In this document: positions 3,879-22,427 of the stretch, piece by piece
Layout of the letters: the number at the start of each line of letters is the position of its first letter
Position numbering within the stretch: the first letter of the stretch is position 1
Origin: Syntrophaceae bacterium UBA5764
Lineage (GTDB): Bacteria > Desulfobacterota > Syntrophia > Syntrophales > Smithellaceae
Reading direction: 5' to 3'
Length of the DNA stretch: 64,000 nucleotides
NCBI GenBank assembly: GCA_002418825.1
Contig: DIEW01000015.1
Coordinates: 157 to 64,156 of the forward strand
The notes under the pieces: model-generated
The model's input: only the letters and a program-made list of their open reading frames with translations
Databases searched by the model: none
What the model was told of the DNA's origin: nothing
Translations under genes and position numbers: made by a program

Positions 3879-4626
3879 TAAGGAAGGAAATTTTACGCAT
3901 TTGGGCAAAAATAAAGAAATTACCGGCGAAAATCTGTCGCCGATGTTTGGCGGCATCATTCGCCACTATGATCTGATTAATCATGTTTTTACCTGGGGCA
4001 TGGATATTGGCTGGAGAAAAAAATTAGTTGCCTGTTGTCTGGAAATAAACCCTCGGGAAGTTTTGGACCTCGGTTGCGGCACGGGAGATTTGGCCATAAG
4101 CATCGCCCTCCTTGCGCCGGAAAATCTGCACGTTACCGCCTGCGATTTCAGCAGGGAAATGCTGGCTGTCGCGTCCCAAAAAGCGCGAAAAGTCGGGGTG
4201 GATAATAAAATATCTTTTATCAATGCTGACGCGGCTAATTTTCCTTTTTCTGATAGTTATTTTGATTGCGTCGGCATTTCCTTTGCTTTCCGCAACATGA
4301 TTTATAAAAATGCTTCCGCCGACAGGCACCTTGCCGAAATTTTGCGCGTGCTCAAACCCGGTGGTTCCTGTTTTATTGCCGAAACCAGTCAGCCGCGAAA
4401 TAAATTCATCCAAGCTATGCATCATTTCTACATTCGCACCTATGTTTATACCATGGGGCTGCTTATTTCCGGCGATAGGGCCGCGTATAAATATCTTGCC
4501 GAATCGGCGGTAAATTTCTATGGTCCGGATGAGCTGGGAAAGATTCTGATTACCGCGGGCTTTAAGCAGGTTTTTTATCAGCCTCTTTTTTTCGGCGCGG
4601 CGGGAATTTACCGGTTGATCAAATAA
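3871..4626 (+). CDS. ubiE: demethylmenaquinone/ubiquinone C-methyltransferase (UbiE/MenG family)
   Basis: N-terminal MFGGIIRHYDLINHVFTWG..WRKK typical of UbiE, plus SAM motif LDLGCGTGD. Overlaps the menA stop by 8 nt. Start codon uncertain (TTG). Confidence 0.8.
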   Translation: MDNKEGNFTHLGKNKEITGENLSPMFGGIIRHYDLINHVFTWGMDIGWRKKLVACCLEINPREVLDLGCGTGDLAISIALLAPENLHVTACDFSREMLAVASQKARKVGVDNKISFINADAANFPFSDSYFDCVGISFAFRNMIYKNASADRHLAEILRVLKPGGSCFIAETSQPRNKFIQAMHHFYIRTYVYTMGLLISGDRAAYKYLAESAVNFYGPDELGKILITAGFKQVFYQPLFFGAAGIYRLIK

Positions 4627-9835: not shown

Positions 9836-10048
9836 CTCCTGAAAGAAATAGTCGCTTTCACCTACAAACAAACAAGCATGGCAAACAATTATTCTGATAA
9901 TTTGCTTTTGAAGTGTTTAACGGAGCCGCGACTGAGCTGTCTCGTGTAACGGGATCTGTTCCAGTCGCTTGTTCGGCCGCCGCAGGCGGTTGAGCAAGCG
10001 ACTTTCAGGCGCGGCTGTAAACCGTCGCCTGCATGGCTTTGTTGGCTG

Positions 10049-10405
10049 CTAGAATGTGATGACCTTATCGCTGCCAATAACCCATTCGGCCAGTTCCGGC
10101 ATGGTTGCTTTCTCTGCTCCGTCGAAATAGGGATGGTTCTTGTAGATTCCACAGCGAGCCATGCAGGTTCCGCAAACTTTGACGGGGACACCTTTCGAGA
10201 TCAAATCCTTGAGCATGGCCGAGAGGTCTTGGTCGTAGTTCTCGGGCGGCTTGCATACGTCGCGTGCCATGTCCACGGAATCGTTCATGAGGAAGATGCG
10301 GACTTCCTGTCCGGCCTCCTGAAGTTTTCCTGCCAGTCGGAGTCCGTTCCACGTGATATCGGTGTTGTCGTACGGTTCGCGGTTGAAGATGATCAGCACT
10401 TTCAT
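10049..10405 (-). CDS. DsrE/DsrF-like sulfur-relay family protein
   Basis: 118-aa MKVLIIFN..YDNTD..RIFLMNDSV..VCGTCMARCG pattern typical of DsrE-like proteins. Confidence 0.7.
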   Translation of the reverse strand: MKVLIIFNREPYDNTDITWNGLRLAGKLQEAGQEVRIFLMNDSVDMARDVCKPPENYDQDLSAMLKDLISKGVPVKVCGTCMARCGIYKNHPYFDGAEKATMPELAEWVIGSDKVITF

Positions 10406-10506
10406 GTTTTCCCTTTCTCTTGTTCAGCCAACGACAGAGATCAGTGGCCGGGGCGCAAGCCCCGGTCCACTGCATTGATTTGTTGGGACTTTTCTCAAGA
10501 TATTCT

Positions 10507-11445
10507 TTAACAATAATCAGGTGATGGTTCGTGTACTTCTGTATGGCAATCCATCCATTCTAAATCTTTACCAATAACAAGCTCTTCAATCATAGAATGA
10601 TGTGTATTTGTCATTGGGATTAGGCGCATTTGAAATCCGTGCAATCTAGCCATTGCCTTTACTTCATCAGCATTATCATATGTCATTAGGAAGTCGCCTT
10701 CTATGGAATCGCATAGAGTAAACAAACGTTCATGGTCGAGATCGAAGTGGCGGTATAGTCTTTTGCCCGCCTTTTTACCTCCTGCTGTATAAGGTGGATC
10801 AATAAAGAAAATAACATCCCTTCTGTTTGAATATTCTTGAATAACTTCCAGGCCGTCCTTTTGAAGAAAGGTTATTTTATTCTGAATAAATTTTAAATTA
10901 TTAAATCGTTTTGCAAGTGTTTCCGGATACCATCGAGAATGAATTCCCTTACCGTTTTCTCCATATTTTAAAAATCCAGAACCCTCAGCTAATATGCCAC
11001 CGTGAAAGGTCCTGTTTTTTAATATAGTTTGAAATGCTCTTTCTTTTGTACTCACTTCTTTTTTTGAAATTTCTTCTATTACTGAATCTCTTGTTAGAAC
11101 AAAGGACAATATTTTATCAGCAATCCATTCTGAATTTCCATCGATTACAGACTGCCAGACTGATGCAATATCATCATCAATTTCCGACATGATAACTCTT
11201 GATACTAAATTCTCGAATAGACCTGTGAGGCTTATTATTCCACCGCCTGCAAAGGGCTCTATCAAGATTGTTGGCTTCGGATTATGATTTGATACCCATT
11301 CCCGAAATGTTGGGACAAACCATGTTTTACCGCCAGGATAGCGGAATGGGCTTCGCTGAGGTATTGACGCAACATTAACAGGTCTGGGTCTTGTGATCTC
11401 TTCACCCATTTCTGAAAATAATGTTTGTTGTTTAGGTTTTTTCAT
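10507..11445 (-). CDS. DNA N6-adenine methyltransferase, Dam/D12 class (type II R-M, M subunit)
   Basis: Motif I EPFAGGG followed later by motif IV FFIDPPY. Starts 1 nt after the upstream nuclease gene. Confidence 0.85.
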   Translation of the reverse strand: MKKPKQQTLFSEMGEEITRPRPVNVASIPQRSPFRYPGGKTWFVPTFREWVSNHNPKPTILIEPFAGGGIISLTGLFENLVSRVIMSEIDDDIASVWQSVIDGNSEWIADKILSFVLTRDSVIEEISKKEVSTKERAFQTILKNRTFHGGILAEGSGFLKYGENGKGIHSRWYPETLAKRFNNLKFIQNKITFLQKDGLEVIQEYSNRRDVIFFIDPPYTAGGKKAGKRLYRHFDLDHERLFTLCDSIEGDFLMTYDNADEVKAMARLHGFQMRLIPMTNTHHSMIEELVIGKDLEWMDCHTEVHEPSPDYC

Positions 11446-11446
11446 C

Positions 11447-12355
11447 TTAAAAAGGATTATCTATTGTTTTGTTCGTTGGTGGTGTTTCAAGTTTATCGTC
11501 TAGCTTATCCTGCAATAATCTTATAAAATCATCAATCTTACCGGGCACAGGAGTAGTTATAGATATTAGAGCAGGTTCAAATTCTGTGAAGACTTCATCG
11601 ATTTTTGTTAACATAAACCTTTCCTGACCATCTTCTTCGATTAACTTAAGATCATATATGAGCCATGCAATATCAGCTTTTGATTTGCTCACTGATTTCA
11701 GGGGCGGAAGTGTATCAAAGAAACTCTTATTTAATGCAACTGCTGATCTTTTTCGCCATGTGTGAAGAATGCCACCCTTGAATAATAGCTGAGGCGCTAA
11801 CCGCTTCCTTGAAGATGAAAGATAATCTGGCCTAGGATAGTTTGGTTGTGCAGACCAGTCCATTTTTGCATTACCCTTCGGATCTTTCATATAGTACTCG
11901 AATGGATCACGAACATTTCCTGAGATATAAACTGCTTGAACTTCTAGAGCACCAAAATCAAGAATCTTCCCGCAATCATCATATTGAACAAGAACAATAT
12001 CAATATTGCCAGCTGATTTACCGTTTGCATCGTTCAGGCGAACTTCCGTGAGGGAACTCCACAATGCATCCTTATCAAAGAAAAAAGAAGCTGCATCATC
12101 TGTAATTAGCCATTCCTCTCTAAACCGAATGGGACAAGTGATCGCTGGATAGCTGTTTTGAAAAACACTGCATACCCCGAGTGGATTCTTTGCCTTGTCT
12201 TTTGTGCAGTTTGGTACTTTGTTATTGAAAGGACATAGGCGATGGGATCTGTATCGGTTAGCTTTTGCTGTTTGATCGTTAATGAGGTGACCAAAAACCT
12301 CTGCAAGTGGCTGATTATGATCTTTCATGCTTTTGATTATACCATCATATTTCAT
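11447..12355 (-). CDS. type II restriction endonuclease, NotI-like family
   Basis: N-terminal AEVFGH.., a Cys cluster CPF..NC..GVC..TCP, and a later ID..LEVQ block resemble R.NotI as I recall it. Genetic linkage to the MTase. GGAGG RBS. Confidence 0.65.
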   Translation of the reverse strand: MKYDGIIKSMKDHNQPLAEVFGHLINDQTAKANRYRSHRLCPFNNKVPNCTKDKAKNPLGVCSVFQNSYPAITCPIRFREEWLITDDAASFFFDKDALWSSLTEVRLNDANGKSAGNIDIVLVQYDDCGKILDFGALEVQAVYISGNVRDPFEYYMKDPKGNAKMDWSAQPNYPRPDYLSSSRKRLAPQLLFKGGILHTWRKRSAVALNKSFFDTLPPLKSVSKSKADIAWLIYDLKLIEEDGQERFMLTKIDEVFTEFEPALISITTPVPGKIDDFIRLLQDKLDDKLETPPTNKTIDNPF

Positions 12356-12430
12356 AGGAGGGATAATACTAATTTTGTAAGTCAGTTCAATTCTATTCGC
12401 TGATAAGCGCTATTTCCTAGCATTGGTCCC

Positions 12431-12826
12431 AACAATGTTTATATGGATCGGTGCTAATACTGCAAACGCCGACAGCACTGTCGGCCTAACACCCCTCTAA
12501 AAAATCTATGATTTTGAACTTAATAGCTTAATATTAAACAAGAATCAATGTTTTTGTTTGTCTTTATTTTGGATATTATGCCGATCCTTATAATATCACA
12601 ATTCACTGCAATTATTTTTCTTCTAATCCCTCAACAAACGCCAGCACATTTTTCCCCAATATGCTGTGGTTATAGCCTCCCTCTAAAATGCCGAAGCAGC
12701 CACCGTGGTTGCGCTGGGCGGTTTCTCGCATCAGTTTGCCCATAAAAGTATAATCCTCGGTTTTTAATAGGCCGCCCCAGTCGGCTTCGTGATTGTCGAA
12801 TCCGGCGGAAGCGGCAATCATGTCGG
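12431..12826. repeat. left copy of an imperfect direct repeat (orphan HDAC 3' end plus downstream element)
   Basis: Aligns with 17425-17763: a 59-nt block (12431-12489), a diverged spacer, then the last 69 codons. A 40-nt run is identical (12787-12826). Confidence 0.85.
12612..12826 (-). pseudogene. orphan 3' fragment of an HDAC-like deacetylase gene
   Basis: Translates to MIAASAGFDNHEADWGG..EGGYNHSILGKNVLAFVEGLEEK, which differs at 3 of 69 residues from the C-terminus of the intact gene at 17549-18295. No upstream coding part. Confidence 0.85.
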
Positions 12827-12859
12827 TGTGTCGGCGCTACATTTTCAAAAAATCGTTCA

Positions 12860-13969
12860 TTATCGTCCTGTCCGGTCCGTGATATCTACAATAATTTCCC
12901 GGTCGGTAAACATCGGGATAGTTCTGATTCGGTTTGTCTGAAAGTTGATTTTTTTGAGGTCGATTTTCCTGAGGTTGAAATTGTCGTAGGTGCGGTAATA
13001 ATACACGCGGTTGGTCAGATCACGGAAACTGGACCACTGGGTCGTTTCGCTGGCGGTAATGTTGCCTTTCGCATCTCGGTCCACCGCCATGCCCCGGACG
13101 ATATGCAATGAGCTGACGATGTGTTGAGCAAGATTCAGCAGGCCTTCGGCATTTTCCTGCTGGTCGGCAAATCGAAGCGTGACGGCCATCCGGACAAAGC
13201 GGGAAGGGGGTGTCAAATCACCCGGCAGGCCGAACAAGCTTGCGCCGTGGCCGGTGGCGGTATAAGCCTTGCCGCCGAAGACGGCGGGCGGTGTCTGATC
13301 GTTTTTCATGCCGACATAATTGCGCAGATTTGTGAGCATCCAGGGAAAATTCGGCGCGTTGGTCATGATCCCCAGGGGGTTGTCGTAAATATGCACATTA
13401 CCCTGTTCGTATTCGATAACGGCGCAGTCGCCGGATGCGTCGTGTAAAATGAAATGGCCGGGAAGCACCATGCCTCCCAATTCCGGATTTTTGTGTCCAA
13501 AAACTTTTACTTTGTTAATGGCTTGCACCGCTTCTTTAACGCTGCCGAAATTTCCCAGAATCCAGGAGCCGAAAACGATATTGGCCAGCGCCGGCGATTT
13601 GTCTTTGGTAGGGACGCTTTGCCATTGCATGTCAGCGTCATACCAAAGAAGGCTGAAAGACAAGCCTGCTTCATTCAAGCCGTCACTGATACCGTCTTCT
13701 TTTCCCAGAGAGTTTATGGCGACGTACCCGTACTTGGTGATCCATTTTACGGGGACAACACCATCGGGCGCGGGACTGACGAAACTTTTTCCGCGCGGCA
13801 CCACAATCACGGCATAACCCATATCGTAACCGAATTCCATGGTTCGTCCACTGATAATGGTTTTATCCTTGGCAGTTACGCTGAAAACGGAACAGGCGCT
13901 GAGTGTTTTCCATGGCCCGCACACTATCACGCAGGTCAGAATCAGAATAGATACCACTAATTTTTTCAT
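12860..13969 (-). CDS. secreted linear-amide C-N hydrolase, choloylglycine hydrolase / penicillin V acylase family (Ntn hydrolase)
   Basis: Signal peptide ends ..LSA, followed by the nucleophile Cys (CSVFSV..GRTMEF). ATG at 13969 has AGGAGGA upstream. Confidence 0.8.
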   Translation of the reverse strand: MKKLVVSILILTCVIVCGPWKTLSACSVFSVTAKDKTIISGRTMEFGYDMGYAVIVVPRGKSFVSPAPDGVVPVKWITKYGYVAINSLGKEDGISDGLNEAGLSFSLLWYDADMQWQSVPTKDKSPALANIVFGSWILGNFGSVKEAVQAINKVKVFGHKNPELGGMVLPGHFILHDASGDCAVIEYEQGNVHIYDNPLGIMTNAPNFPWMLTNLRNYVGMKNDQTPPAVFGGKAYTATGHGASLFGLPGDLTPPSRFVRMAVTLRFADQQENAEGLLNLAQHIVSSLHIVRGMAVDRDAKGNITASETTQWSSFRDLTNRVYYYRTYDNFNLRKIDLKKINFQTNRIRTIPMFTDREIIVDITDRTGR

Positions 13970-14100
13970 GGGTTTATCCTCCTTAAAAAAGCGGAAAATT
14001 TGATGTTGCAAGTTCAATAGTTAGTTGTGATTAAAGCAGAACCGCCCCCTTTTATTTTTGCCCAATTCTTTTTTCATATGACAGCTTTTAATGAATGAAA

Positions 14101-17100
14101 TCAGTGGTTGCCTTTTTCTTGCCTACGCAAGATGGGCACTATATCCTCTGCAACCACTGGTTTGTGGAAGTAGAATCCCTGAATTTCGAAACATAAATTG
14201 TCTTTGAGAAAGGCCAGCTGCTGCTGGGTTTCCACTCCTTCAGCCACGACATGCAGGCCAAGCGTTTTCCCAAGCTGTAAAATGATTTTGATGATTCCTT
14301 CATCCTTGGCGTTCTTGGCGATTCCGCGGATGAACTGCATGTCAATTTTAATCCGGTCAACCGGCAGGTCTTTCAGGCGGCCCAGCGAGGAATAATCGGT
14401 TCCGAAATCGTCAATCGAGAGAGACAGCCCCAGCGCTTTGAGTTTGTTCATCGTGTTGATCACGTAGTCCTTGTCGTGTGTCCCCAGGCTTTCTGTTACT
14501 TCCAGCTCCAGGTAACAGGGCATCAGTTTCGTTTCGCGTAACACCCTGTCGACAACATTGACGATATTTGGACTATGGAACTGTTTTACTGAAAGATTGA
14601 CGGCAATCCTCGTTGGTTTGAGGCCCTGATTCTGCCACTCCATGTTCTGGCGGCACGCTGTCATCAGCACCCACTCGCCAATGGAATGAATCAGACTTGT
14701 TTTTTCCGCTATGGGAATAAACTTTGTCGGCGGTATGATTCCTTTCACGGGATGCCGCCAGCGGATCAGGGCTTCCAACCCGATGATTTCAATGGTATCA
14801 GGATTGACCTGGGGCTGATAAAGTAAAAACAGTTCGTTTCTTCCCACAGCCCGGTACAGGCTGTTGGTGAGTTCCATGTTGTCTAAAACTTCCTTTTTCA
14901 TTTCGGCGGAACAAAAGGTGACTTTGTTTTTTCCCGTGCTTTTGGCGGCATACATGGCCATGTCCGCGTTTTTAATGAGTTCGTCCGCGTCTTCACCATC
15001 GAATGGAAATACGGCGACTCCCGCGCTGGCGGTGATAAAAAACTCCTGGCCTTTGATGGTGATGGGCTCATTAAAAACGCTCATGATTTTGTTTGCGGAT
15101 TCTCCGATGTATTTAATATCGGGGATCTGCTGAAGCATCACGAGAAATTCATCTCCGCCGAAACGCGCGACACTATCATATTGGCGCACACATGCCGACA
15201 GCCTTTCCGCGATCTGCATGAGCATGGCGTCTCCCCCGTCATGTCCCATCGTATCGTTAACGGACTTGAAAGAATCAACGTCGATAAAGATGATGCTGAT
15301 GAGCTTTTCAGTGCGCATGGCCAGACTGATGGCCTGTTTCAGGCGATCCGTCAAAAGCGCGCGATTCGGCAATGCGGTCAACGCATCATAGTAAGCCATA
15401 TAGTTGATTGCTTTTTCGGCTTCCACCTGGCGCAAGGCATCCGATAAAAGATTTCCCAAGACCTGAATGATCTCCCGGTGGTCTTGATCCCACTTCCGGG
15501 GACTTTGTATTGCCTCAAAGAAAATATACCCGATAACATTATCTGTGCCGGTCAATGCGACAATGATTAAGGATTGGATTTGTTTGTCTTTCAGGGAGTC
15601 CTTGTCCGGTATGGCACCGGGTTGCAATGTTTCTGCGTCGGAAACGTGAATATACCCTGCCTTGTCAATCTGGTCTTTAACCCCGGGCAGCTCCAGGACT
15701 GTTTGCTGGTTTTTGGAGTCTAAGGTGGAGGCGATTCCGTCGTTGCACCACTCATGGGAATGCACTGGCTGATGGTTTTTTCCCGAATACATGAAAAGAC
15801 CAGCCCGGTCGGCCTGAAAATGACGGCCGCACTGACGCAGCATATCGTTAATGATCTTATCGATGTTCTCTTGACTGGCATCAACAAATTGGGCGGAAAT
15901 GTCAGCCAGCAAACTCTGGTGTTTGACCTGTTCTTCATTTTTTGCCAACCGGTTGAAGTAAATGCGATTGATGTAAAATGCGATCCAGATCAAAACGCCG
16001 AAAATGCCTATTCGGAAGATATGGTTTGATGCGTCAATCTTTACGGTTTGTTCCGGCACCGTTATCCATATCCATAATAGCGTTAAGAAAGTCACAAGGC
16101 TTACCACGTACAATAATCTTTTTTGACGGAATAAAATAGATACCATGACAAAAATAAGGGGCAAGGACCAGAAAGTAACGTGATCGCTGACGAAGCTCAG
16201 AACAATAAGAGGAATCGATAAGATTACCAGGACATTCAGCAACAAATCTTTAGCCCCTTGTTGAATATTTAATTTTTGAATAATCTGCAGCGCCAATCCC
16301 AGAACGATCAGCAACAAGGTTTTCGGCAGCGATGTAATTAGGGGGCTTCCTTGGATGAACGTTTCTATGGCGAAATGCAAAAACGCACTCAGGATATAGG
16401 CCACGGTTAAATACTGGTAAAGCTCGGATTGGCTCGCTTCGCTCAGGATCTGACCTTCCTGAGGAACGGTGTTTTTCAATTTTGGTGCCATTAAACCGTA
16501 TTTGGCGATGCAATAATACATCGTCGCTATCGGAATCAGGATGATTAAGGGGGCGAGTTGGGGAAACTTGAATGGAAAGTAATAATTGATTACAAATTCG
16601 GTCATCGTTCCGACAACCAGAGCCACCGCATAAGAAACGATGATCAGGTACGCCTGCTTCTTGATTACGCGTTCTTTTGAGGACCAGCCCCAGTGAAAAA
16701 ACAGACCGATAACGATCAAAGAAAAAACGGCGTAATAAACATTGAACACCGCGTCCCACGCGGACGCAGGCCGGACATTCACCCAACCGGCATAGGTGTA
16801 TTCCAGAACGTATCTTTTTAACGCCAGGTCGCCATAAAGGCTGAAGACAAAGATATTCAAGATGGCCGGAAGATAGATCAGCGCGTAAATCCATCTTTTC
16901 TTCAAAACGTTTTGCTTTCCGGTCAGGCAAAGCGTGTAGTGAAGAAGAAAACTGTATAATGTTCCCCATCCTATTGCGCCGATGCGTCTCCAGGTCAGGC
17001 TCATTTCATAAGACATTGCCGAGTTGGCGATGGAGAAAGAAAGTGACCAGATACAAAGGGTTAAGCAGATACAAAAAAAGAGCCGGTGAATGACAGAGCC

Positions 17101-17190
17101 GAAGTTGAGCCTGATCACATAAACGCCCAGGAAAAAGTACACGACCATGGCGAGGAAAAACAGCAGTGAAATTAAGTTCGGTAAAGGCAT
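14101..17190 (-). CDS. multi-pass membrane GAF-GGDEF-EAL protein (c-di-GMP synthase/phosphodiesterase)
   Basis: 1029 aa. The N-terminal ~400 aa are hydrophobic helices. Has RFGGDEFLV (GGDEF) and EALIRW plus DDFGTDYSS (EAL). Confidence 0.9.
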   Translation of the reverse strand: MPLPNLISLLFFLAMVVYFFLGVYVIRLNFGSVIHRLFFCICLTLCIWSLSFSIANSAMSYEMSLTWRRIGAIGWGTLYSFLLHYTLCLTGKQNVLKKRWIYALIYLPAILNIFVFSLYGDLALKRYVLEYTYAGWVNVRPASAWDAVFNVYYAVFSLIVIGLFFHWGWSSKERVIKKQAYLIIVSYAVALVVGTMTEFVINYYFPFKFPQLAPLIILIPIATMYYCIAKYGLMAPKLKNTVPQEGQILSEASQSELYQYLTVAYILSAFLHFAIETFIQGSPLITSLPKTLLLIVLGLALQIIQKLNIQQGAKDLLLNVLVILSIPLIVLSFVSDHVTFWSLPLIFVMVSILFRQKRLLYVVSLVTFLTLLWIWITVPEQTVKIDASNHIFRIGIFGVLIWIAFYINRIYFNRLAKNEEQVKHQSLLADISAQFVDASQENIDKIINDMLRQCGRHFQADRAGLFMYSGKNHQPVHSHEWCNDGIASTLDSKNQQTVLELPGVKDQIDKAGYIHVSDAETLQPGAIPDKDSLKDKQIQSLIIVALTGTDNVIGYIFFEAIQSPRKWDQDHREIIQVLGNLLSDALRQVEAEKAINYMAYYDALTALPNRALLTDRLKQAISLAMRTEKLISIIFIDVDSFKSVNDTMGHDGGDAMLMQIAERLSACVRQYDSVARFGGDEFLVMLQQIPDIKYIGESANKIMSVFNEPITIKGQEFFITASAGVAVFPFDGEDADELIKNADMAMYAAKSTGKNKVTFCSAEMKKEVLDNMELTNSLYRAVGRNELFLLYQPQVNPDTIEIIGLEALIRWRHPVKGIIPPTKFIPIAEKTSLIHSIGEWVLMTACRQNMEWQNQGLKPTRIAVNLSVKQFHSPNIVNVVDRVLRETKLMPCYLELEVTESLGTHDKDYVINTMNKLKALGLSLSIDDFGTDYSSLGRLKDLPVDRIKIDMQFIRGIAKNAKDEGIIKIILQLGKTLGLHVVAEGVETQQQLAFLKDNLCFEIQGFYFHKPVVAEDIVPILRRQEKGNH

Positions 17191-17424
17191 TTTATGGAAT
17201 TCCTGTAGCGATCAATTTCGAGAATCCATCTATTTTTCTATTCAATTGGAATTTACAATTAAAATAGAACGGCCTGCTTTATTTTTCAATCCCTTTTTGT
17301 ATCGAACATCGCGACTCATCCTTGAGACGACTCCGTCGGCGGTGGTGCCGAGGAAGATGGGGTTGCCGGTGCGGTAATTATCCTTCTTTTTTCCGGTTGT
17401 TTTCTCGCCATCTTGTCTTGGCCA

Positions 17425-17763
17425 AACATTGTTTATATGGATCGGTTCTAATGCCGCAAACGCCGAACGCAGCGTTGTCCTAAAAATCAGCCACTAAATA
17501 TGTTGTTTGATATCTCATGGCTTTAAATTAAATAATAATAAATCCGTATTATTTTTCCTCCAGCCCCTTAACGAACGCCAGAACATTTTTTCCCAGCACA
17601 CTATGATTATAGCCGCCTTCTAAAATGCCGAAGCAGCCGCCGTGGTTACGCTGGGCGGTTTCTCTTATCAGTTTGCCCATAAAAGTATAATCCTCGGTTT
17701 TTAATAATCCGCCCCAATCGGCCTCGTGATTGTCGAATCCGGCGGAAGCGGCAATCATGTCGG
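17425..17763. repeat. right copy of the imperfect direct repeat (part of the intact HDAC-like gene plus downstream element)
   Basis: Partner of 12431-12826. A 40-nt run is identical (17724-17763). Confidence 0.85.
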
Positions 17764-18295
17764 CATTGGTTTCCGCTAAAGCTTCTTCCACTTTTTTCAA
17801 GTATTCGTTGCGGTTTTGCGTGGCGGGGTTGTAAATGGTCACATAGCCCTTGTTGCCTAAAATATTGACGTTGCCGTCGCCGAAATGCAGATCAAAATCC
17901 AGAATGAAAGCTTTTTTGATTTTGCCCTGGTGTTTTAATTTTTCCAGCGCGATTGCCATATTATTAAAATAACAAAATCCCCAGGCGCTATTAGCGGATG
18001 CGTGATGGCCCGGCGGACGGATTAAAGCAAAACAGGGCTCGGTCAAACCAATTTCGACGGCCTTGATCGCTCCGCCTGCCGCTAAGGCCGCGATGTCATA
18101 CACGCCTTCGCGCTCCACCGATTTTATATGCTCCGGCGTGTGCACGCGCAGGATGTCTTCTTTTGTTGCCGGTTTTGGTTCGACAAAAGTCACTTTGCCT
18201 TTGAGCACGCTTTCCACCGCGCGGATTCTTCCGGGAGAGGCGGCAGGATCGGAGGTGTACACTTCGTTATAATCTTCATGATAAACGACTTTCAT
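17549..18295 (-). CDS. histone deacetylase-family (Zn-dependent) deacetylase, compact form
   Basis: RPPGHHA, DFDLHFGDG, SAGFD and EGGY motifs. Confidence 0.85.
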   Translation of the reverse strand: MKVVYHEDYNEVYTSDPAASPGRIRAVESVLKGKVTFVEPKPATKEDILRVHTPEHIKSVEREGVYDIAALAAGGAIKAVEIGLTEPCFALIRPPGHHASANSAWGFCYFNNMAIALEKLKHQGKIKKAFILDFDLHFGDGNVNILGNKGYVTIYNPATQNRNEYLKKVEEALAETNADMIAASAGFDNHEADWGGLLKTEDYTFMGKLIRETAQRNHGGCFGILEGGYNHSVLGKNVLAFVKGLEEK

Positions 18296-18431
18296 TATAG
18301 CCCCCTTGGCATGTCATTGTAAATTACTACTTGCTGCCATGTGGCAATCCGAATTATGAGATTGCTTTCCGAGCATGCGCAGGACAATATTCGCCATCAA
18401 AGACGAACACACTGCACGCAAGGATAACGCT

Positions 18432-18872
18432 CTAATCTGAAAATCCTATTGTGCGCAAAGCCGCCAGTGTGTTTTTAGAAACGGCAATACTATTCAACTC
18501 CTGCGGGCTAAACCAGCGCGCTTCCAGCGCGTCATCCGCGCCCTGCGGTTCGCCGGAAATATACTTGGCGGCAAAATCAGCAACCACAAAGTGATATTTA
18601 ATTTTTCCCTGCGCGTCGTGCTCCACAAAATCAAAAACATAAACGCATTCTTCGGCTTTGGCCTTAATTCCCGTTTCCTCAAGCAATTCACGTTCGGCGC
18701 ACTGGTGCATTGATTCGCCCAATTTCAGTGTGCCGCCGGGAATTGCCCAAAGGCCAAAGCTTGGTTCCACTCCGCGCTTTACCAGTAATATTTTGCCGTC
18801 TTTTTGGACAATCGCCCCGACGCCGACTAGCGGCTTTGCCGGATAGAAATTGCCATGTTGCTTATTCATCAT
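18432..18872 (-). CDS. Nudix hydrolase
   Basis: Nudix box GGTLKLGESMHQCAERELLEETGI. ATGA overlap with the upstream gene. Confidence 0.85.
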   Translation of the reverse strand: MMNKQHGNFYPAKPLVGVGAIVQKDGKILLVKRGVEPSFGLWAIPGGTLKLGESMHQCAERELLEETGIKAKAEECVYVFDFVEHDAQGKIKYHFVVADFAAKYISGEPQGADDALEARWFSPQELNSIAVSKNTLAALRTIGFSD

Positions 18873-19639
18873 TTATCCAAAATAAAATTAAAGCGGTTCA
18901 CCAGCCACGGCTCATCTCCGCCGTCATAATTTTTTTCAATAAAAGTAACGCGACGGTTCTTACCGATGAGTAAAACCGTGGACGAGCGCGTGCCGTAATG
19001 GGGACTTTTAATAAAAATGGGCGAAAGAACTTTTTCCCATTCTTTATCCACTCCTGTAGAGGGTAGTTTTTCCGGCGGCGGGAAGCGCCGGTCGGATAAA
19101 AGCGCGAACAGCGCTTCTTCCATCGCTGCTCGCTTGCTTTTGAGCGCTTCTTTCATCAGTTTTTTCCCCCGGACAACTTTCGGCCAGGGCGTATTCAGAA
19201 GGTGATTGCTGAGGCCGTGAATCCCCGCCGTTATTTTTTGTTTTTCCCCACCGCGGTTGGAATAATAATAAAAGCCGCCGCTATCCTGAAGAATCAAATT
19301 GTAGCCGTTATATTTTGCATCCTGTCTGCTGATTTTCTTAATGAATTCTTCCGCATTATTTTTGTCGCCTAAAAAATCTTTTACCAGTTTGCCGCGCGAC
19401 TTAGCATCGAACATAAAAGATGCCGGATCGCGGTAGTTGGTTATCGCGGCGAATTTTCCCTGCCGAGTGATGCCCAGCCAGGTGCCTTTTTCCTTTAAAT
19501 CTCGCCCCGCCAGCAGATCGGGATAATCTTTCCAGAAATCGGCGGATGCGGAAGGCCGGTCATAAAATTCATCGCGGTTAGCCGCTAAAACAAGCTTGTA
19601 GGAAGGATGAACATCGTAGGCAAAAATTATCAGGCACAT
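18869..19639 (-). CDS. NRDE family protein (TANGO2-like)
   Basis: N-terminal MCLI.. and the LAANRDEFYDRP signature. Confidence 0.8.
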   Translation of the reverse strand: MCLIIFAYDVHPSYKLVLAANRDEFYDRPSASADFWKDYPDLLAGRDLKEKGTWLGITRQGKFAAITNYRDPASFMFDAKSRGKLVKDFLGDKNNAEEFIKKISRQDAKYNGYNLILQDSGGFYYYSNRGGEKQKITAGIHGLSNHLLNTPWPKVVRGKKLMKEALKSKRAAMEEALFALLSDRRFPPPEKLPSTGVDKEWEKVLSPIFIKSPHYGTRSSTVLLIGKNRRVTFIEKNYDGGDEPWLVNRFNFILDK

Positions 19640-19655
19640 TATTATTTTTTAGTAT

Positions 19656-20420
19656 TTAAATTTTTTCTTTTACTTTTTCGATTATCCGCGACATCGCTTC
19701 TCCCGCGGGCGCTTCAATGCGCACATCGGCGATATCGTCCTGCTGAGTTTCCCCCAGATTTATGATGGCGATTTTCGCGCCGGCTCTTTTGGCGTAAAGC
19801 GGGAGATAGGCCGCCGGATAAACAAACAAAGTGGAGCCGATCACCAAAAGAAAATCGCAGGTGCTTGCTTCCTTTGTGGCGCGGGCTAAAACGGTCTGCG
19901 GCAGCATCTCGCCGAAGAATACAACATCGGGTTTGAGAATGCCGTGGCATGATTCGCAGGAAAGAACGTATTCGGGCGAGGGGACATCTTTTTGGGCGAT
20001 ATCTATGGGATAGCGTTTATGGCATTGCAGGCAGACGATCCTCTGCATGTTGCCGTGCAGTTCGTAGATCAGATGCGGGGAGTTGCCGGCTTTCTGATGC
20101 AGGTTGTCCACGTTCTGCGTGATGACGGAACTTAATTTTCCCATTTTTTCCAGCTCGGCCACCGCGTAGTGCGCACGATTTGGTCGGACATCGGTCATCA
20201 GGCCGCCTTCTCTGAGGTGCTGCCAGATTCGCCGGCGCGTTTCTTCCGAACTTAGAAATCTGTCAATGGTGTAATCGTTGGGGTCAACTTTAGTCCACAA
20301 TCCCTGCGGACCGCGAAAATCCGGAATGCCCGATTCCGTGCTGATGCCCGCGCCGGTAAAAACAACGATTCTTTTCGACGCCACAATTGTTTCCGCTATT
20401 TTACTGATTTGTGCTTCCAT
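19656..20420 (-). CDS. cobB: NAD-dependent protein deacylase (sirtuin, Sir2/CobB family)
   Basis: GAGISTESGIPDFRG, catalytic ELHGN, and the Zn ribbon CLQC..CESC. Confidence 0.9.
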   Translation of the reverse strand: MEAQISKIAETIVASKRIVVFTGAGISTESGIPDFRGPQGLWTKVDPNDYTIDRFLSSEETRRRIWQHLREGGLMTDVRPNRAHYAVAELEKMGKLSSVITQNVDNLHQKAGNSPHLIYELHGNMQRIVCLQCHKRYPIDIAQKDVPSPEYVLSCESCHGILKPDVVFFGEMLPQTVLARATKEASTCDFLLVIGSTLFVYPAAYLPLYAKRAGAKIAIINLGETQQDDIADVRIEAPAGEAMSRIIEKVKEKI

Positions 20421-20581
20421 AATTCAGTTAATACCTCTTTTGCTGATGAAATATATTTTCTAAAATACATCAACTTTTAGTAAAAGCAAAAGGAAAAAGA
20501 GGGTAAAACTGAAAAGCTGAATAAGGATAATAAATTACGAAAATAAAAGGTTTGCGCGCGGAATTTCTTGCACGGCAGAGG

Positions 20582-21355
20582 TCAAAATAAAATTTTGGCT
20601 GTTTTGTCCAGTACGTCTTTTAGTTTTCCGGCATCGCCGGATTTAATCAGTGTACGGATATCGGCCAGAGTTTTTTCGTAAAGCTCTATTATTTTGACAG
20701 TATCCTGATTGCGCGTGATGATGTCAGCGTAAAGCTCCGGGCTTTCGGCAAAAACTTTTTTGACAATTTCCATTTTGGCGCGCAAAACAGGAGTGGAATA
20801 ATTAGCAAGTTCCCGAGGATTAATTTTTGATGCGGCGATGGTCATGCCCAGAGAAATGGTGTGCAGATGATTGAGCACCTGCACAACGGCCATCATTTTA
20901 TCGTGGTGCGCGGGACTCGTTTCCAAAACTTTATAGTTATTATTTTGGAAAAGCTCTTTAATCCAGACAATCCACTTTACGCCGCGCGCAGGGCACAGGA
21001 TGATATTTTGTCCGGAAAAATCCGGCATGTTCGGGCCAAAGAGCGGATGGCAACCGATTACTTCCGCGCTTGTGCTCGCCAGCATCCACTCCACCGGATC
21101 TTTTTTGAGCGAGGTCAAATCCATCAGCAGTTTGTTTTCGTGGAGCAGCGGCCCGACTTCTCTGATGACTTTTTCTGTAGCGGCAACCGGCACGGCCACG
21201 GCGACAACATCGCAAAGCCCGGCAATATCTTTTATACTCAGAGGCGTTTTGCGGCCGCAGATGTGCACCTTGCAATTTTCTTTTTGCAGCAAGGCGGCCA
21301 GCCAGCTGCCCATGCTGCGCGTGCCCCCGATAATGCCCACAGAAATATTATCCAT
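20582..21355 (-). CDS. tyrA: prephenate dehydrogenase
   Basis: N-terminal Rossmann IIGGTRSMGSWLA, a PDH-family C-terminal helical domain, and operon context. Confidence 0.8.
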   Translation of the reverse strand: MDNISVGIIGGTRSMGSWLAALLQKENCKVHICGRKTPLSIKDIAGLCDVVAVAVPVAATEKVIREVGPLLHENKLLMDLTSLKKDPVEWMLASTSAEVIGCHPLFGPNMPDFSGQNIILCPARGVKWIVWIKELFQNNNYKVLETSPAHHDKMMAVVQVLNHLHTISLGMTIAASKINPRELANYSTPVLRAKMEIVKKVFAESPELYADIITRNQDTVKIIELYEKTLADIRTLIKSGDAGKLKDVLDKTAKILF

Positions 21356-22427
21356 TGATTACCGCCCTTTGCCGCAAGAGGTGATCAGCCAAAACAATGC
21401 AAACCATTGCTTCGCATACCGGCACGATTCGCGGTATCACACAGACATCGTGTCTGCCGCTGATTTCAATTTTTCTTTCTTTTCCTTTTGTGTCCAATGT
21501 TTTTTGTTCCTGACCGATAGATGGTATGGGCTTACAATAAGCCCGCAAAATAATATTTTGGCCAGTGGTGATTCCCGCGAGAATTCCGCCGGCATGATTT
21601 GTCTGAAATCCTTTTTTATTCATTTGGTCGTTTATCTGTGAGCCCGCTTTTTGGGCAACCGCGCAGCCGTCGCCGATTTCCACAGCCTTGACCGTGCCGA
21701 TGCTCATCAGCGCTTTGGTCAGGTCCGCGTCCATCTTATCGAAAACCGGCTCGCCCAGTCCCGCCGGAACACCGCGCGCAATGATTTCCACCACCCCGCC
21801 CAGTGAGTCTTTATCCTTCCGCACTGCGGCAATCTTTTCTTCCATAGCGGTCGCCGCCTTTTCGTCGGGACAAAAAAGAGCATTGGCGTGCGTTAGGTGC
21901 AGTAATTCCCTGCCCGTCGGAATGTTTTTGCGGTCGATTTCAATGCCGCCGATGGCTACGGTATAAGCCAAAACCTCCATGCCGGCACGCGCGATAACTT
22001 TTTCCGCGACTGCTCCCGCGGCCACGCGCGCCACCGTTTCTCTGCCGGAGGCACGCCCGCCGCCCCGCCAGTCACGCTGACCGTATTTTTTCCAATAAGT
22101 AAAATCGCCCTGTCCGGGGCGGAAAATATCTTTTAAATTAAGATAAGCGGAAGAATCAGCGCCGGCGTTTCTGATCAAAAGAGAAATAGGCGTGCCGGTG
22201 GTTCTTCCTTCGAAAACTCCGGAAAGAATTTCCACCTTGTCTGCCTCTTTTCTTTTGGTGGAAGAAATTGTTTTTGACGGCCGTCTTCTGTCAAGTGCCG
22301 CTTGAATATCTTTTTCTGCCAGAGCAATTCCCGCCGGGCAGCCGTCCACGACTGCACCAAGGGCTGTTCCGTGTGATTCCCCCCATGTGGTAACGCGAAA
22401 AACACTACCTGTCGTATTTCCGGCCAT
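21348..22427 (-). CDS. aroC: chorismate synthase
   Basis: TTWGESHG and GRHDVCV blocks. GGGAG RBS. Confidence 0.92.
   Translation of the reverse strand: MAGNTTGSVFRVTTWGESHGTALGAVVDGCPAGIALAEKDIQAALDRRRPSKTISSTKRKEADKVEILSGVFEGRTTGTPISLLIRNAGADSSAYLNLKDIFRPGQGDFTYWKKYGQRDWRGGGRASGRETVARVAAGAVAEKVIARAGMEVLAYTVAIGGIEIDRKNIPTGRELLHLTHANALFCPDEKAATAMEEKIAAVRKDKDSLGGVVEIIARGVPAGLGEPVFDKMDADLTKALMSIGTVKAVEIGDGCAVAQKAGSQINDQMNKKGFQTNHAGGILAGITTGQNIILRAYCKPIPSIGQEQKTLDTKGKERKIEISGRHDVCVIPRIVPVCEAMVCIVLADHLLRQRAVING

Follow-up and report, generated by a model that had tools for sequence, protein, structure and literature searches.

Duplicated HDAC gene ends with putative attI-type sites flank two ordinary genes in a Smithellaceae genome

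How does the 3' end of a gene come to lie a second time on the same strand, behind two further genes? The question is raised by a stretch of 64,000 nt from Syntrophaceae bacterium UBA5764 (Smithellaceae; GenBank assembly GCA_002418825.1, contig DIEW01000015.1, positions 157 to 64,156; hereafter the window), in which an intact gene of the histone deacetylase (HDAC) family is followed by genes for a GGDEF-EAL protein and a choloylglycine-hydrolase-family (CBAH) amidase and then by an orphan copy of the end of the HDAC gene. The original prediction, made from the sequence of the window, saw here an element, either decayed, mobilised in trans or acquired by homologous recombination, that had recombined into the HDAC gene, restored it and orphaned its old end. 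Our analysis leads to a different answer, which we consider probable: the HDAC end was duplicated together with a putative attI, i.e. the proximal site of an integron array where cassettes enter, so that the locus would be an integrase-less integron platform behind the stop codon of HDAC, with two non-cassette genes lying between the two copies.

The repeats were located by a repeat search of the window and aligned with MAFFT, and the predicted direct repeat of the HDAC end proved to be real: positions 12611-12826 and 17548-17763 (216 nt) are 89% identical, and a second block, 12428-12549 against 17422-17543, which contains the 59-nt stretch of downstream similarity noticed originally, is 71% identical. 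The alignment also bears out the identical run of 40 nt (12787-12826 and 17724-17763) and the sudden break after it, where the left copy becomes abruptly unrelated; a similarity past 12826 hinted at by tblastn is at noise level, with ~18% identity in the extension. Translated, the left copy matches the deacetylase over its final 70 residues except at three (I/M, V/I and K/E); the number agrees with the prediction, where the first of them was given incorrectly as L/I. The copies differ at 24 nucleotides, ~20 of these differences being synonymous (synonymous divergence dS 0.68, ratio of non-synonymous to synonymous divergence dN/dS 0.04), and the proposal that both 3' ends evolved as coding sequence in separate lineages is thereby upheld. 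A 25-nt probe from the outer block detects just these two sites in the window, with 0 expected by chance; the repeat unit is HDAC nt 533-747 plus the putative attI. The exact HDAC protein is indexed in 68 blocks of the collection, with 10 long contigs listed, and the exact orphan open reading frame (ORF) in 231 blocks, with 10 places listed; the order HDAC, GGDEF-EAL, CBAH and 69-aa orphan is found in all 10 listed contigs and at all 10 listed places. These contigs belong to JGI, ENA and NCBI assemblies of different samples, and because the arrangement recurs in at least 40 independent assemblies the repeat is not a mis-assembly, a danger that the original prediction had itself pointed out.

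The outer block of each copy is a non-coding element of 125-185 nt ending in CCGATCCATATAAACAWTG/TT (here and below the slash marks the crossover point). An exact scan of metagenome contigs for its 21-nt motif CCGATCCATATAAACAWTGTT returned at least 117 stretches, which are conserved up to G/TT and unrelated after it, usually continuing with a ribosome-binding site and an ATG. In over 100 contigs the motif stands at the beginning of an array of attC cassettes. It forms the 3' end of a conserved ~170-nt element, nearly always present once per locus. Of 74 loci with sufficient downstream sequence, 45 contain there an exact reverse complement of the locus's own GTTnnnn, against 9 for the control strand, and in most of these 45 it starts a classic attC; relative to the motif, the attC cores of the family lie downstream in 34 cases and upstream in 0 among the metagenome loci. 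In three loci (L158, L168 and L194) a co-oriented integron integrase gene lies directly upstream, its stop codon ~10 nt ahead of the start of the element; the integrase (TIGR02249, 432 bits, with a cutoff of 265 bits for the assignment) belongs to a family of more than 7,700 proteins at E <= 1e-80, and in this type of integron it is co-oriented with the cassettes. About a quarter of the loci have a co-oriented gene whose end lies 7-32 nt upstream of the element. The core of the element, ATAAACAATG/TTRRRY, is similar to the published minimal attI1 and attI2 cores, AAACAAAGTTRRRY and AATAAAATGTTRRRY (PMC12901181). From its position and the behaviour of its junction we conclude that the outer block is a putative attI-type site of a widespread environmental integron family, the positional and comparative evidence placing it at the proximal end of the array, at the point where cassettes would enter.

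Other assignments of the outer block were also considered. An attC was rejected, since the block folds no better than shuffled sequences, does not recur within a locus and is never preceded by an attC. A scan of positions 10300-18400 against Rfam (E up to 5) gave a single chance match to a long non-coding RNA, so the conserved element is no known RNA family, and a scan of the window for tRNA and tmRNA found none. A sigma-70 scan gave no support for a promoter inside the element, and a search upstream of the 'type B' context revealed no divergent gene. None of the 118 metagenome occurrences of the motif has HDAC upstream, and none of the 80 species-level HDAC loci (L001-L080) fetched for comparison across species has an attI element behind HDAC.

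Several loci carrying the element show further variations. In L120, L193 and L225 the ~170-nt element is broken by insertions of 85-160 nt at model positions ~110-146. The integrase of L194 (1597-2978) is N-terminally truncated and follows genes for a LexA-like repressor and an SRAP (YedK-like) protein, while the integrase reading frame of L168 (129-1295) is split; these two loci look like stages of integrase decay that leave the attI and the array intact. L133 contains two inverted elements (903-1057 on the plus and 4102-4268 on the minus strand), each with the same first cassette behind it, which is either an inverted duplication or an assembly artefact. The sole carrier of the exact motif in the viral collection is a 52-kb IMG/VR contig (L254, 4640-4660); because there is just this one, phages are not the main carriers.

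A type-A profile of the element, applied to the window with nhmmer, gives two co-oriented matches, 17586-17425 and 12597-12431; the cargo starts at the G/TT of the first and the cassettes at the G/TT of the second. The leader of the GGDEF-EAL gene, TTTGGCCAAG..., begins exactly at the G/TT of the right copy, and the 4,994 nt between the two G/TT points (17426 down to 12433) comprise the GGDEF-EAL gene, the CBAH hydrolase gene, the orphan and the second attI. This layout, with the cargo flanked by co-oriented copies of the site, shows a putative attI-cargo-attI unit. As predicted originally, Pfam annotation finds only the GGDEF-EAL gene and the gene of the N-terminal nucleophile (Ntn) hydrolase between the copies; neither has an attC of its own, and both are ordinary chromosomal genes. 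Homologues of the CBAH protein in other species (78-82% identity) lie in unrelated contexts without attC and reveal no donor context. The leaders of the two genes, at ~17230-17290 (GGDEF-EAL) and ~14020-14060 (CBAH) on the minus strand, contain a similar motif of ~45 nt (AAAAATAAAGCAGGCCGTTCTATTTTAATTG... and AAAAATAAAAGGGGGCGGTTCTGCTTTAATCAC...), which suggests common regulation of the two genes, unusual for promoterless cassettes.

The inner boundary of the unit, 12826/12827, reads ...GTAGCGCCGACA-CA/CCGACATG... on the gene strand, with the 6-mer CCGACA on both sides. It has neither a GTT core nor inverted repeats, and it looks like an illegitimate joint associated with microhomology. On our evidence the place of recombination is not this break but the opposite, outer end of each copy with its G/TT. 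A variant of the locus described below (V2) has the same joint of CBAH, 33 nt and orphan, which means that the joint arose once. The features of the region, in which all genes lie on the minus strand and gene domains were assigned by Pfam, are collected in Table 1.

Table 1. Features of the HDAC locus and of the adjoining cassettes, in window coordinates
Feature	Coordinates	Strand	Basis or remark
Intact HDAC-family (Hist_deacetyl) gene, 248 aa	17549..18295	-	Pfam PF00850, E 3e-39
Right repeat copy, coding part (R3), HDAC nt 533-747 including stop	17549..17763	-	Alignment
attI-like element, R type, divergent, 5'-shortened	17425..17548	-	nhmmer type-A, 17586-17425, E 6e-26
R-copy crossover G/TT	between 17427 and 17426	-	Motif AACCGATCCATATAAACAATG/TTTG at 17423-17447
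Cargo gene 1, 7TM-GAF-GGDEF-EAL protein, 1029 aa	14101..17190	-	Pfam
Cargo gene 2, choloylglycine-hydrolase-family (CBAH, Ntn) amidase, 369 aa	12860..13969	-	PF02275, E 3e-64
33-nt spacer ending in the apparent illegitimate joint	12827..12859	-	Sequence read directly
Orphan HDAC 3' end (L3)	12612..12826	-	ATG-initiated 69-aa ORF 12612-12821; gene callers call a 69-aa gene
attI-like element, type A, full length	12431..12597	-	nhmmer E 1e-43
L-copy crossover G/TT	between 12433 and 12432	-	Near-identical strains diverge there
Restriction-modification (R-M) cassette, 2,001 nt	10432..12432	-	Pfam; attC at 10432-10488
NotI-like restriction endonuclease	11447-12355	-	Pfam
D12 adenine methyltransferase	10507-11445	-	Pfam
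DsrE cassette, 511 nt; DsrE 10049-10405	9921..10431	-	Long attC at 9921-10047

In strains that otherwise match the window at ~100% identity, the similarity ends at 12429/12430, a few bases beyond the outer G/TT, and four states were found there: a 175-aa gene and then kup, trkA and trkH; this series with an additional 1.76-kb segment containing a 556-aa gene; this series with a different additional segment of ~0.75 kb; and, in the window, the R-M pair and DsrE. At the junctions the sequences are ...ATAAACATTG/TTGGCC, ...ATTG/TTGTGC and ...ATTG/TTGGGA, and each inserted segment ends in an imperfect palindrome, which begins with the reverse complement of the segment's own start, and then G/TT. 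The R'' sequences pair with these starts (TCCCAAC with G/TTGGGA, AGCCAAC with G/TTGGCT, GCACAAC with G/TTGTGC and GGCCAAC with G/TTGGCC), which is the boundary, a G/TT and an R'' complementary to the segment's own first bases, found in integrons and in clusters of attC sites lacking integrases (CALINs). The junctions are those of integron cassettes, and the left attI is, on this comparison of strains, the putative active insertion point of cassettes.

A generic attC regular expression was too strict for the window (0 matches), and the attC sites were set by hand and by folding. The attC of the R-M cassette has the R'' TCCCAAC and folds at -23.9 kcal/mol (z -7.1), while the DsrE cassette has the R'' AGCCAAC directly after its stop codon and ends in ...GCGGCTCCG/TTAAAC; both have attC hairpins, and the attC sites of the 175-aa and 556-aa cassettes in sister strains show compensatory changes. 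By these features the NotI-like R-M pair and DsrE are canonical cassettes. The R-M cassette is found behind other attC or attI sites in loci L104-L109, which represent at least four array contexts, and in L110 a different cassette precedes the DsrE cassette at the same junction. The GC content of the R-M cassette is 0.35-0.42, i.e. AT-rich, and since the two cargo genes are not, composition marks the R-M cassette and not the insert of the original prediction. No intI being adjacent, the locus fits the definition of a CALIN and not that of a complete integron.

The join between the left attI and these cassettes calls for caution. The orphan-attI is joined to the NotI R-M and DsrE cassettes only in SCADC-derived assemblies; in the SCADC-related locus L104 the same cassettes lie behind a third copy of the attI element, downstream of a 6PF2K gene and a DUF6290 toxin-antitoxin-like pair, and the window and a JGI contig switch attI type at different single-nucleotide polymorphisms within ~100 nt of near-identity. 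Either attI sites were really exchanged here or this near-identity led to a chimeric assembly, and the repeat itself is unaffected in both cases.

Two side observations concern the cassettes themselves. The NotI-like endonuclease and the D12 methyltransferase travel as one 2.0-kb cassette, i.e. as a defence system in cassette form. Cassettes of ~140 nt devoid of an ORF (GTTCGnCCGnCCGCATACGC...GAACGGAGCCGCG...CGCGGCTCCG/TTA) often lie directly behind attI, e.g. in L236 (3257-3400) and just past the motif in L118, L137, L164, L196 and L225, and the long attC of the DsrE cassette (9921-10047) is of the same sequence type.

Comparison of strains, in which HDAC nt 1 to ~570 are identical in all variants compared, yields a population series. 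In at least 24 contigs of the same species, up to 79 kb long, HDAC is followed by ~70 nt and kup, with no attI, and empty sites of this kind (HDAC then kup) also occur in sister species. The same-species HDAC-kup strains have true empty sites, relative to which the region is an insertion. Empty sites had been predicted, and they exist, but the predicted form with DsrE and R-M directly beside HDAC was wrong, because both are cassettes of another array in other assemblies. In the V2 variant the GGDEF-EAL gene is gone through a 3.4-kb deletion between AA microhomologies, and its HDAC end and orphan represent two further alleles; a hybrid attI occurs in one strain. In three short Logan contigs the 5' part of HDAC runs into L3-attI(L) without the insert, the crossovers lying at HDAC nt 533-572 or 590-629 and not at G/TT. 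These contigs are either products of homologous loop-out or artefacts of the k=31 graph, which are conceivable since both crossover stretches are 40-nt identities.

The last 175 nt of HDAC occur in at least five alleles of 78-91% mutual identity, and both copies of the repeat are found as several very different alleles among strains with the same cargo. Both have therefore been repeatedly replaced by imports from diverged lineages, which probably recombined in the conserved HDAC 533-630 stretch, and because of these replacements the divergence between R3 and L3 neither dates nor explains the original event. Among the same strains the first ~570 nt of HDAC and the 400 nt upstream are identical or nearly so, while the last 100-175 nt are hypervariable (17549-17720 against L237, L236, L234 and L231) and the protein is conserved. 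The kup gene of the empty-site strains L237-L240 (10818-12749) is broken up into two ORFs, of 357-388 aa and of 239 aa, probably as a pseudogene, and it is intact (643 aa) in the array-carrying strains.

Beyond HDAC lie Nudix, TANGO2 and SIR2 genes, HDAC being the last gene of a conserved SIR2-TANGO2-Nudix-HDAC block. The order chorismate synthase, prephenate dehydrogenase, SIR2, TANGO2, (Nudix), HDAC is kept in most Smithellaceae of the 80 loci (window 18432-22427), and the synteny always ends right after HDAC. In several species the HDAC region lies near mnmE-jag-yidC-rnpA, close to the replication origin.

As to how the locus works and how it arose, we suggest that an integron integrase encoded elsewhere would act in trans and insert cassettes at the second attI, and that the two genes could be looped out through the 0.4-kb direct repeats, with homologous or attI x attI recombination as the mechanism. 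Both genes would already have stood directly behind the HDAC-attI of an ancestor or of a diverged relative, and a single illegitimate microhomology joint (12826/12827) would have put a second unit of HDAC nt 533-747 and attI behind the cargo. The favoured route is one-ended homologous recombination in which HDAC served as the anchor and the other end was sealed illegitimately, in the manner of homology-facilitated illegitimate recombination, with alleles imported later from diverged lineages replacing both copies and accounting for the synonymous divergence. Import from a diverged relative with the cargo behind HDAC-attI is put forward tentatively, as the best placed of several routes none of which commands a majority of our confidence; acquisition by homologous recombination, one of the options that the original prediction had listed, stays a leading candidate. 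Several observations weigh against our interpretation. The tblastn search with an integron integrase found no tyrosine recombinase in the window, in line with the predicted lack of a locally encoded recombinase, and no integrase was shown for the species; for this reason the action of an integrase in trans is an assumption. An intI lies beside the element in just 3 of the 52 metagenome loci with more than 1.5 kb upstream. The putative right attI is always followed by the same cargo, and no contig joining it to downstream cassettes was seen. No robust single-copy ancestor, HDAC-attI or HDAC-attI-cargo, was found among the strains, and the proposed route cannot be separated from Campbell-type insertion of a circle or from tandem duplication with loss of a cassette.

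The last of these scenarios is rather unlikely and yet the strongest competitor of one-ended import. An ancestor with HDAC-attI/GGDEF-EAL-CBAH...attC would have undergone duplication in place through a joint between sister strands, reaching from HDAC nt 533 to 33 nt past CBAH; an integrase would then have excised the second cargo (second attI x its attC), and imported alleles would have made the copies diverge. A single novel joint with a duplicated CCGACA is typical of microhomology-mediated events, the two sequences joined are within 5 kb of each other on one chromosome, the sequence past the second attI starts exactly at G/TT, and allele replacement of both copies is documented, all of which speaks for it. 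Yet three steps are the minimum it requires, neither the ancestral single-copy arrangement nor a doubled cargo was seen in any strain, and divergence in place alone is ruled out as the source of the differences between the copies by dS 0.68 and dN/dS 0.04. We rank slightly lower, as unlikely, the proposal from which the work started, namely that a formerly self-mobile element with its own HDAC 3' end entered the 40-nt run by site-specific or Campbell-type insertion, restored the target gene and orphaned its old end, its integrase being lost or acting in trans. It accounts for the direct repeats that flank the cargo, the empty sites, the purifying selection on both ends and the several alternative 3' ends that HDAC has among strains whose 5' parts are identical, and the three short contigs resemble precise loop-out with crossovers inside two 40-nt identical runs. 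Against this, HDAC nt 533-572 differ from those of other species by only 1-4 mismatches in 40, despite ~20% divergence elsewhere in the gene, and because of this conservation the 40-nt identity is expected without any crossover and cannot serve as a diagnostic core. Moreover, the inner break lacks inverted repeats and a GTT-type core, neither annotation of the window nor tblastn found an integrase or transposase, the cargo starts exactly at an integron G/TT, which this proposal does not predict, and no such element or orphan is present at the HDAC end of the 80 other species, in none of which HDAC is followed by the cargo or by another copy of its 3' end. Instead of a decayed mobile element we therefore prefer to see two genes between two putative attI sites of an integrase-less platform. 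There is very little to be said, finally, for an artefact in which the repeat or the insert stems from mis-joined reads of two strains. It could draw on the suspect left flank, with its join limited to SCADC-derived assemblies, the alternative placement of the cassettes in L104 and the discordant attI switch points, but the HDAC-attI-GGDEF-EAL-CBAH-orphan-attI order is identical in contigs from many unrelated samples and assemblers, some of them 100-438 kb long.

The locus touches on two open questions, how integrons recruit genes and what integrase-less arrays are. It offers an attI family, defined by its sequence, that abounds in anoxic environmental metagenomes, mostly without an adjacent integrase, and a natural case of two ordinary genes between putative attI copies, a chromosomal counterpart of the deltaattI-type cassettes of clinical integrons. 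The population series, with empty, occupied and partly deleted sites and different first cassettes, makes the activity of the site testable. To annotators it is a warning that a gene-end duplication beside a variable region is not necessarily the trace of a decayed prophage or island. As a speculation to which we give little credence, the attI module might be a portable platform that lands behind stop codons of expressed host genes and, when duplicated along with part of the host gene, brackets chromosomal genes as pseudo-cassettes that an integrase could mobilise; if true, integrons would have here a natural way of recruiting non-cassette genes.

Among known systems, the prophage-like element e14 and phage 21 integrate in the E. 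coli icd gene and bring a substitute 3' end of the gene; they encode their own integrase, and the crossover takes place at a defined core inside the gene. The HDAC locus is similar in that a gene 3' end is duplicated and the functional and orphan copies show mainly synonymous differences. It differs in having no integrase, only the GGDEF-EAL and CBAH genes being located between the repeats, no core at the inner boundary and no identical core specific to attL and attR, and in the position of the recombination site, which lies downstream of the gene; the gene end is not recurrently occupied either (0 of 80 species-level loci). Homology-facilitated illegitimate recombination consists of a one-ended homologous anchor plus a microhomology joint. 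Here too an anchor gene, HDAC, adjoins an apparent illegitimate joint with a short duplicated 6-mer, and a foreign tail was gained without loss of the recipient gene, the difference being that no donor genome has been identified for this locus.

With CALINs and sedentary chromosomal integrons, as detected by IntegronFinder (PMC4889954), the locus shares attC hairpins with complementary R'' and R', G/TT cassette boundaries, at least two attC sites with no integrase nearby, strain-variable cassettes and a defence (R-M) cassette. Unlike them, it keeps an attI-type region of ~170 nt directly after the stop codon of a host gene and has this region twice, each time with 216 nt of the host gene, with two non-cassette genes in between. 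The closest described counterparts are the deltaattI-type cassettes and the attI1-ORF-attI1 architectures of class 1 and 2 mobile integrons, which are recombination-proficient and moved by IntI1 in vivo, with documented attI fragments of up to 244 nt (PMC12901181). In both cases a copy or fragment of attI follows the cargo in place of an attC, and the cores of the sites (AAACAAAGTTRRRY and AATAAAATGTTRRRY there, ATAAACAATGTTRRRY here) are alike. In the Smithellaceae locus the setting is a chromosomal environmental platform with no local integrase, the downstream copy is a whole putative attI with 216 nt of the upstream host gene, and the cargo amounts to 4.6 kb with two genes that have their own leaders.

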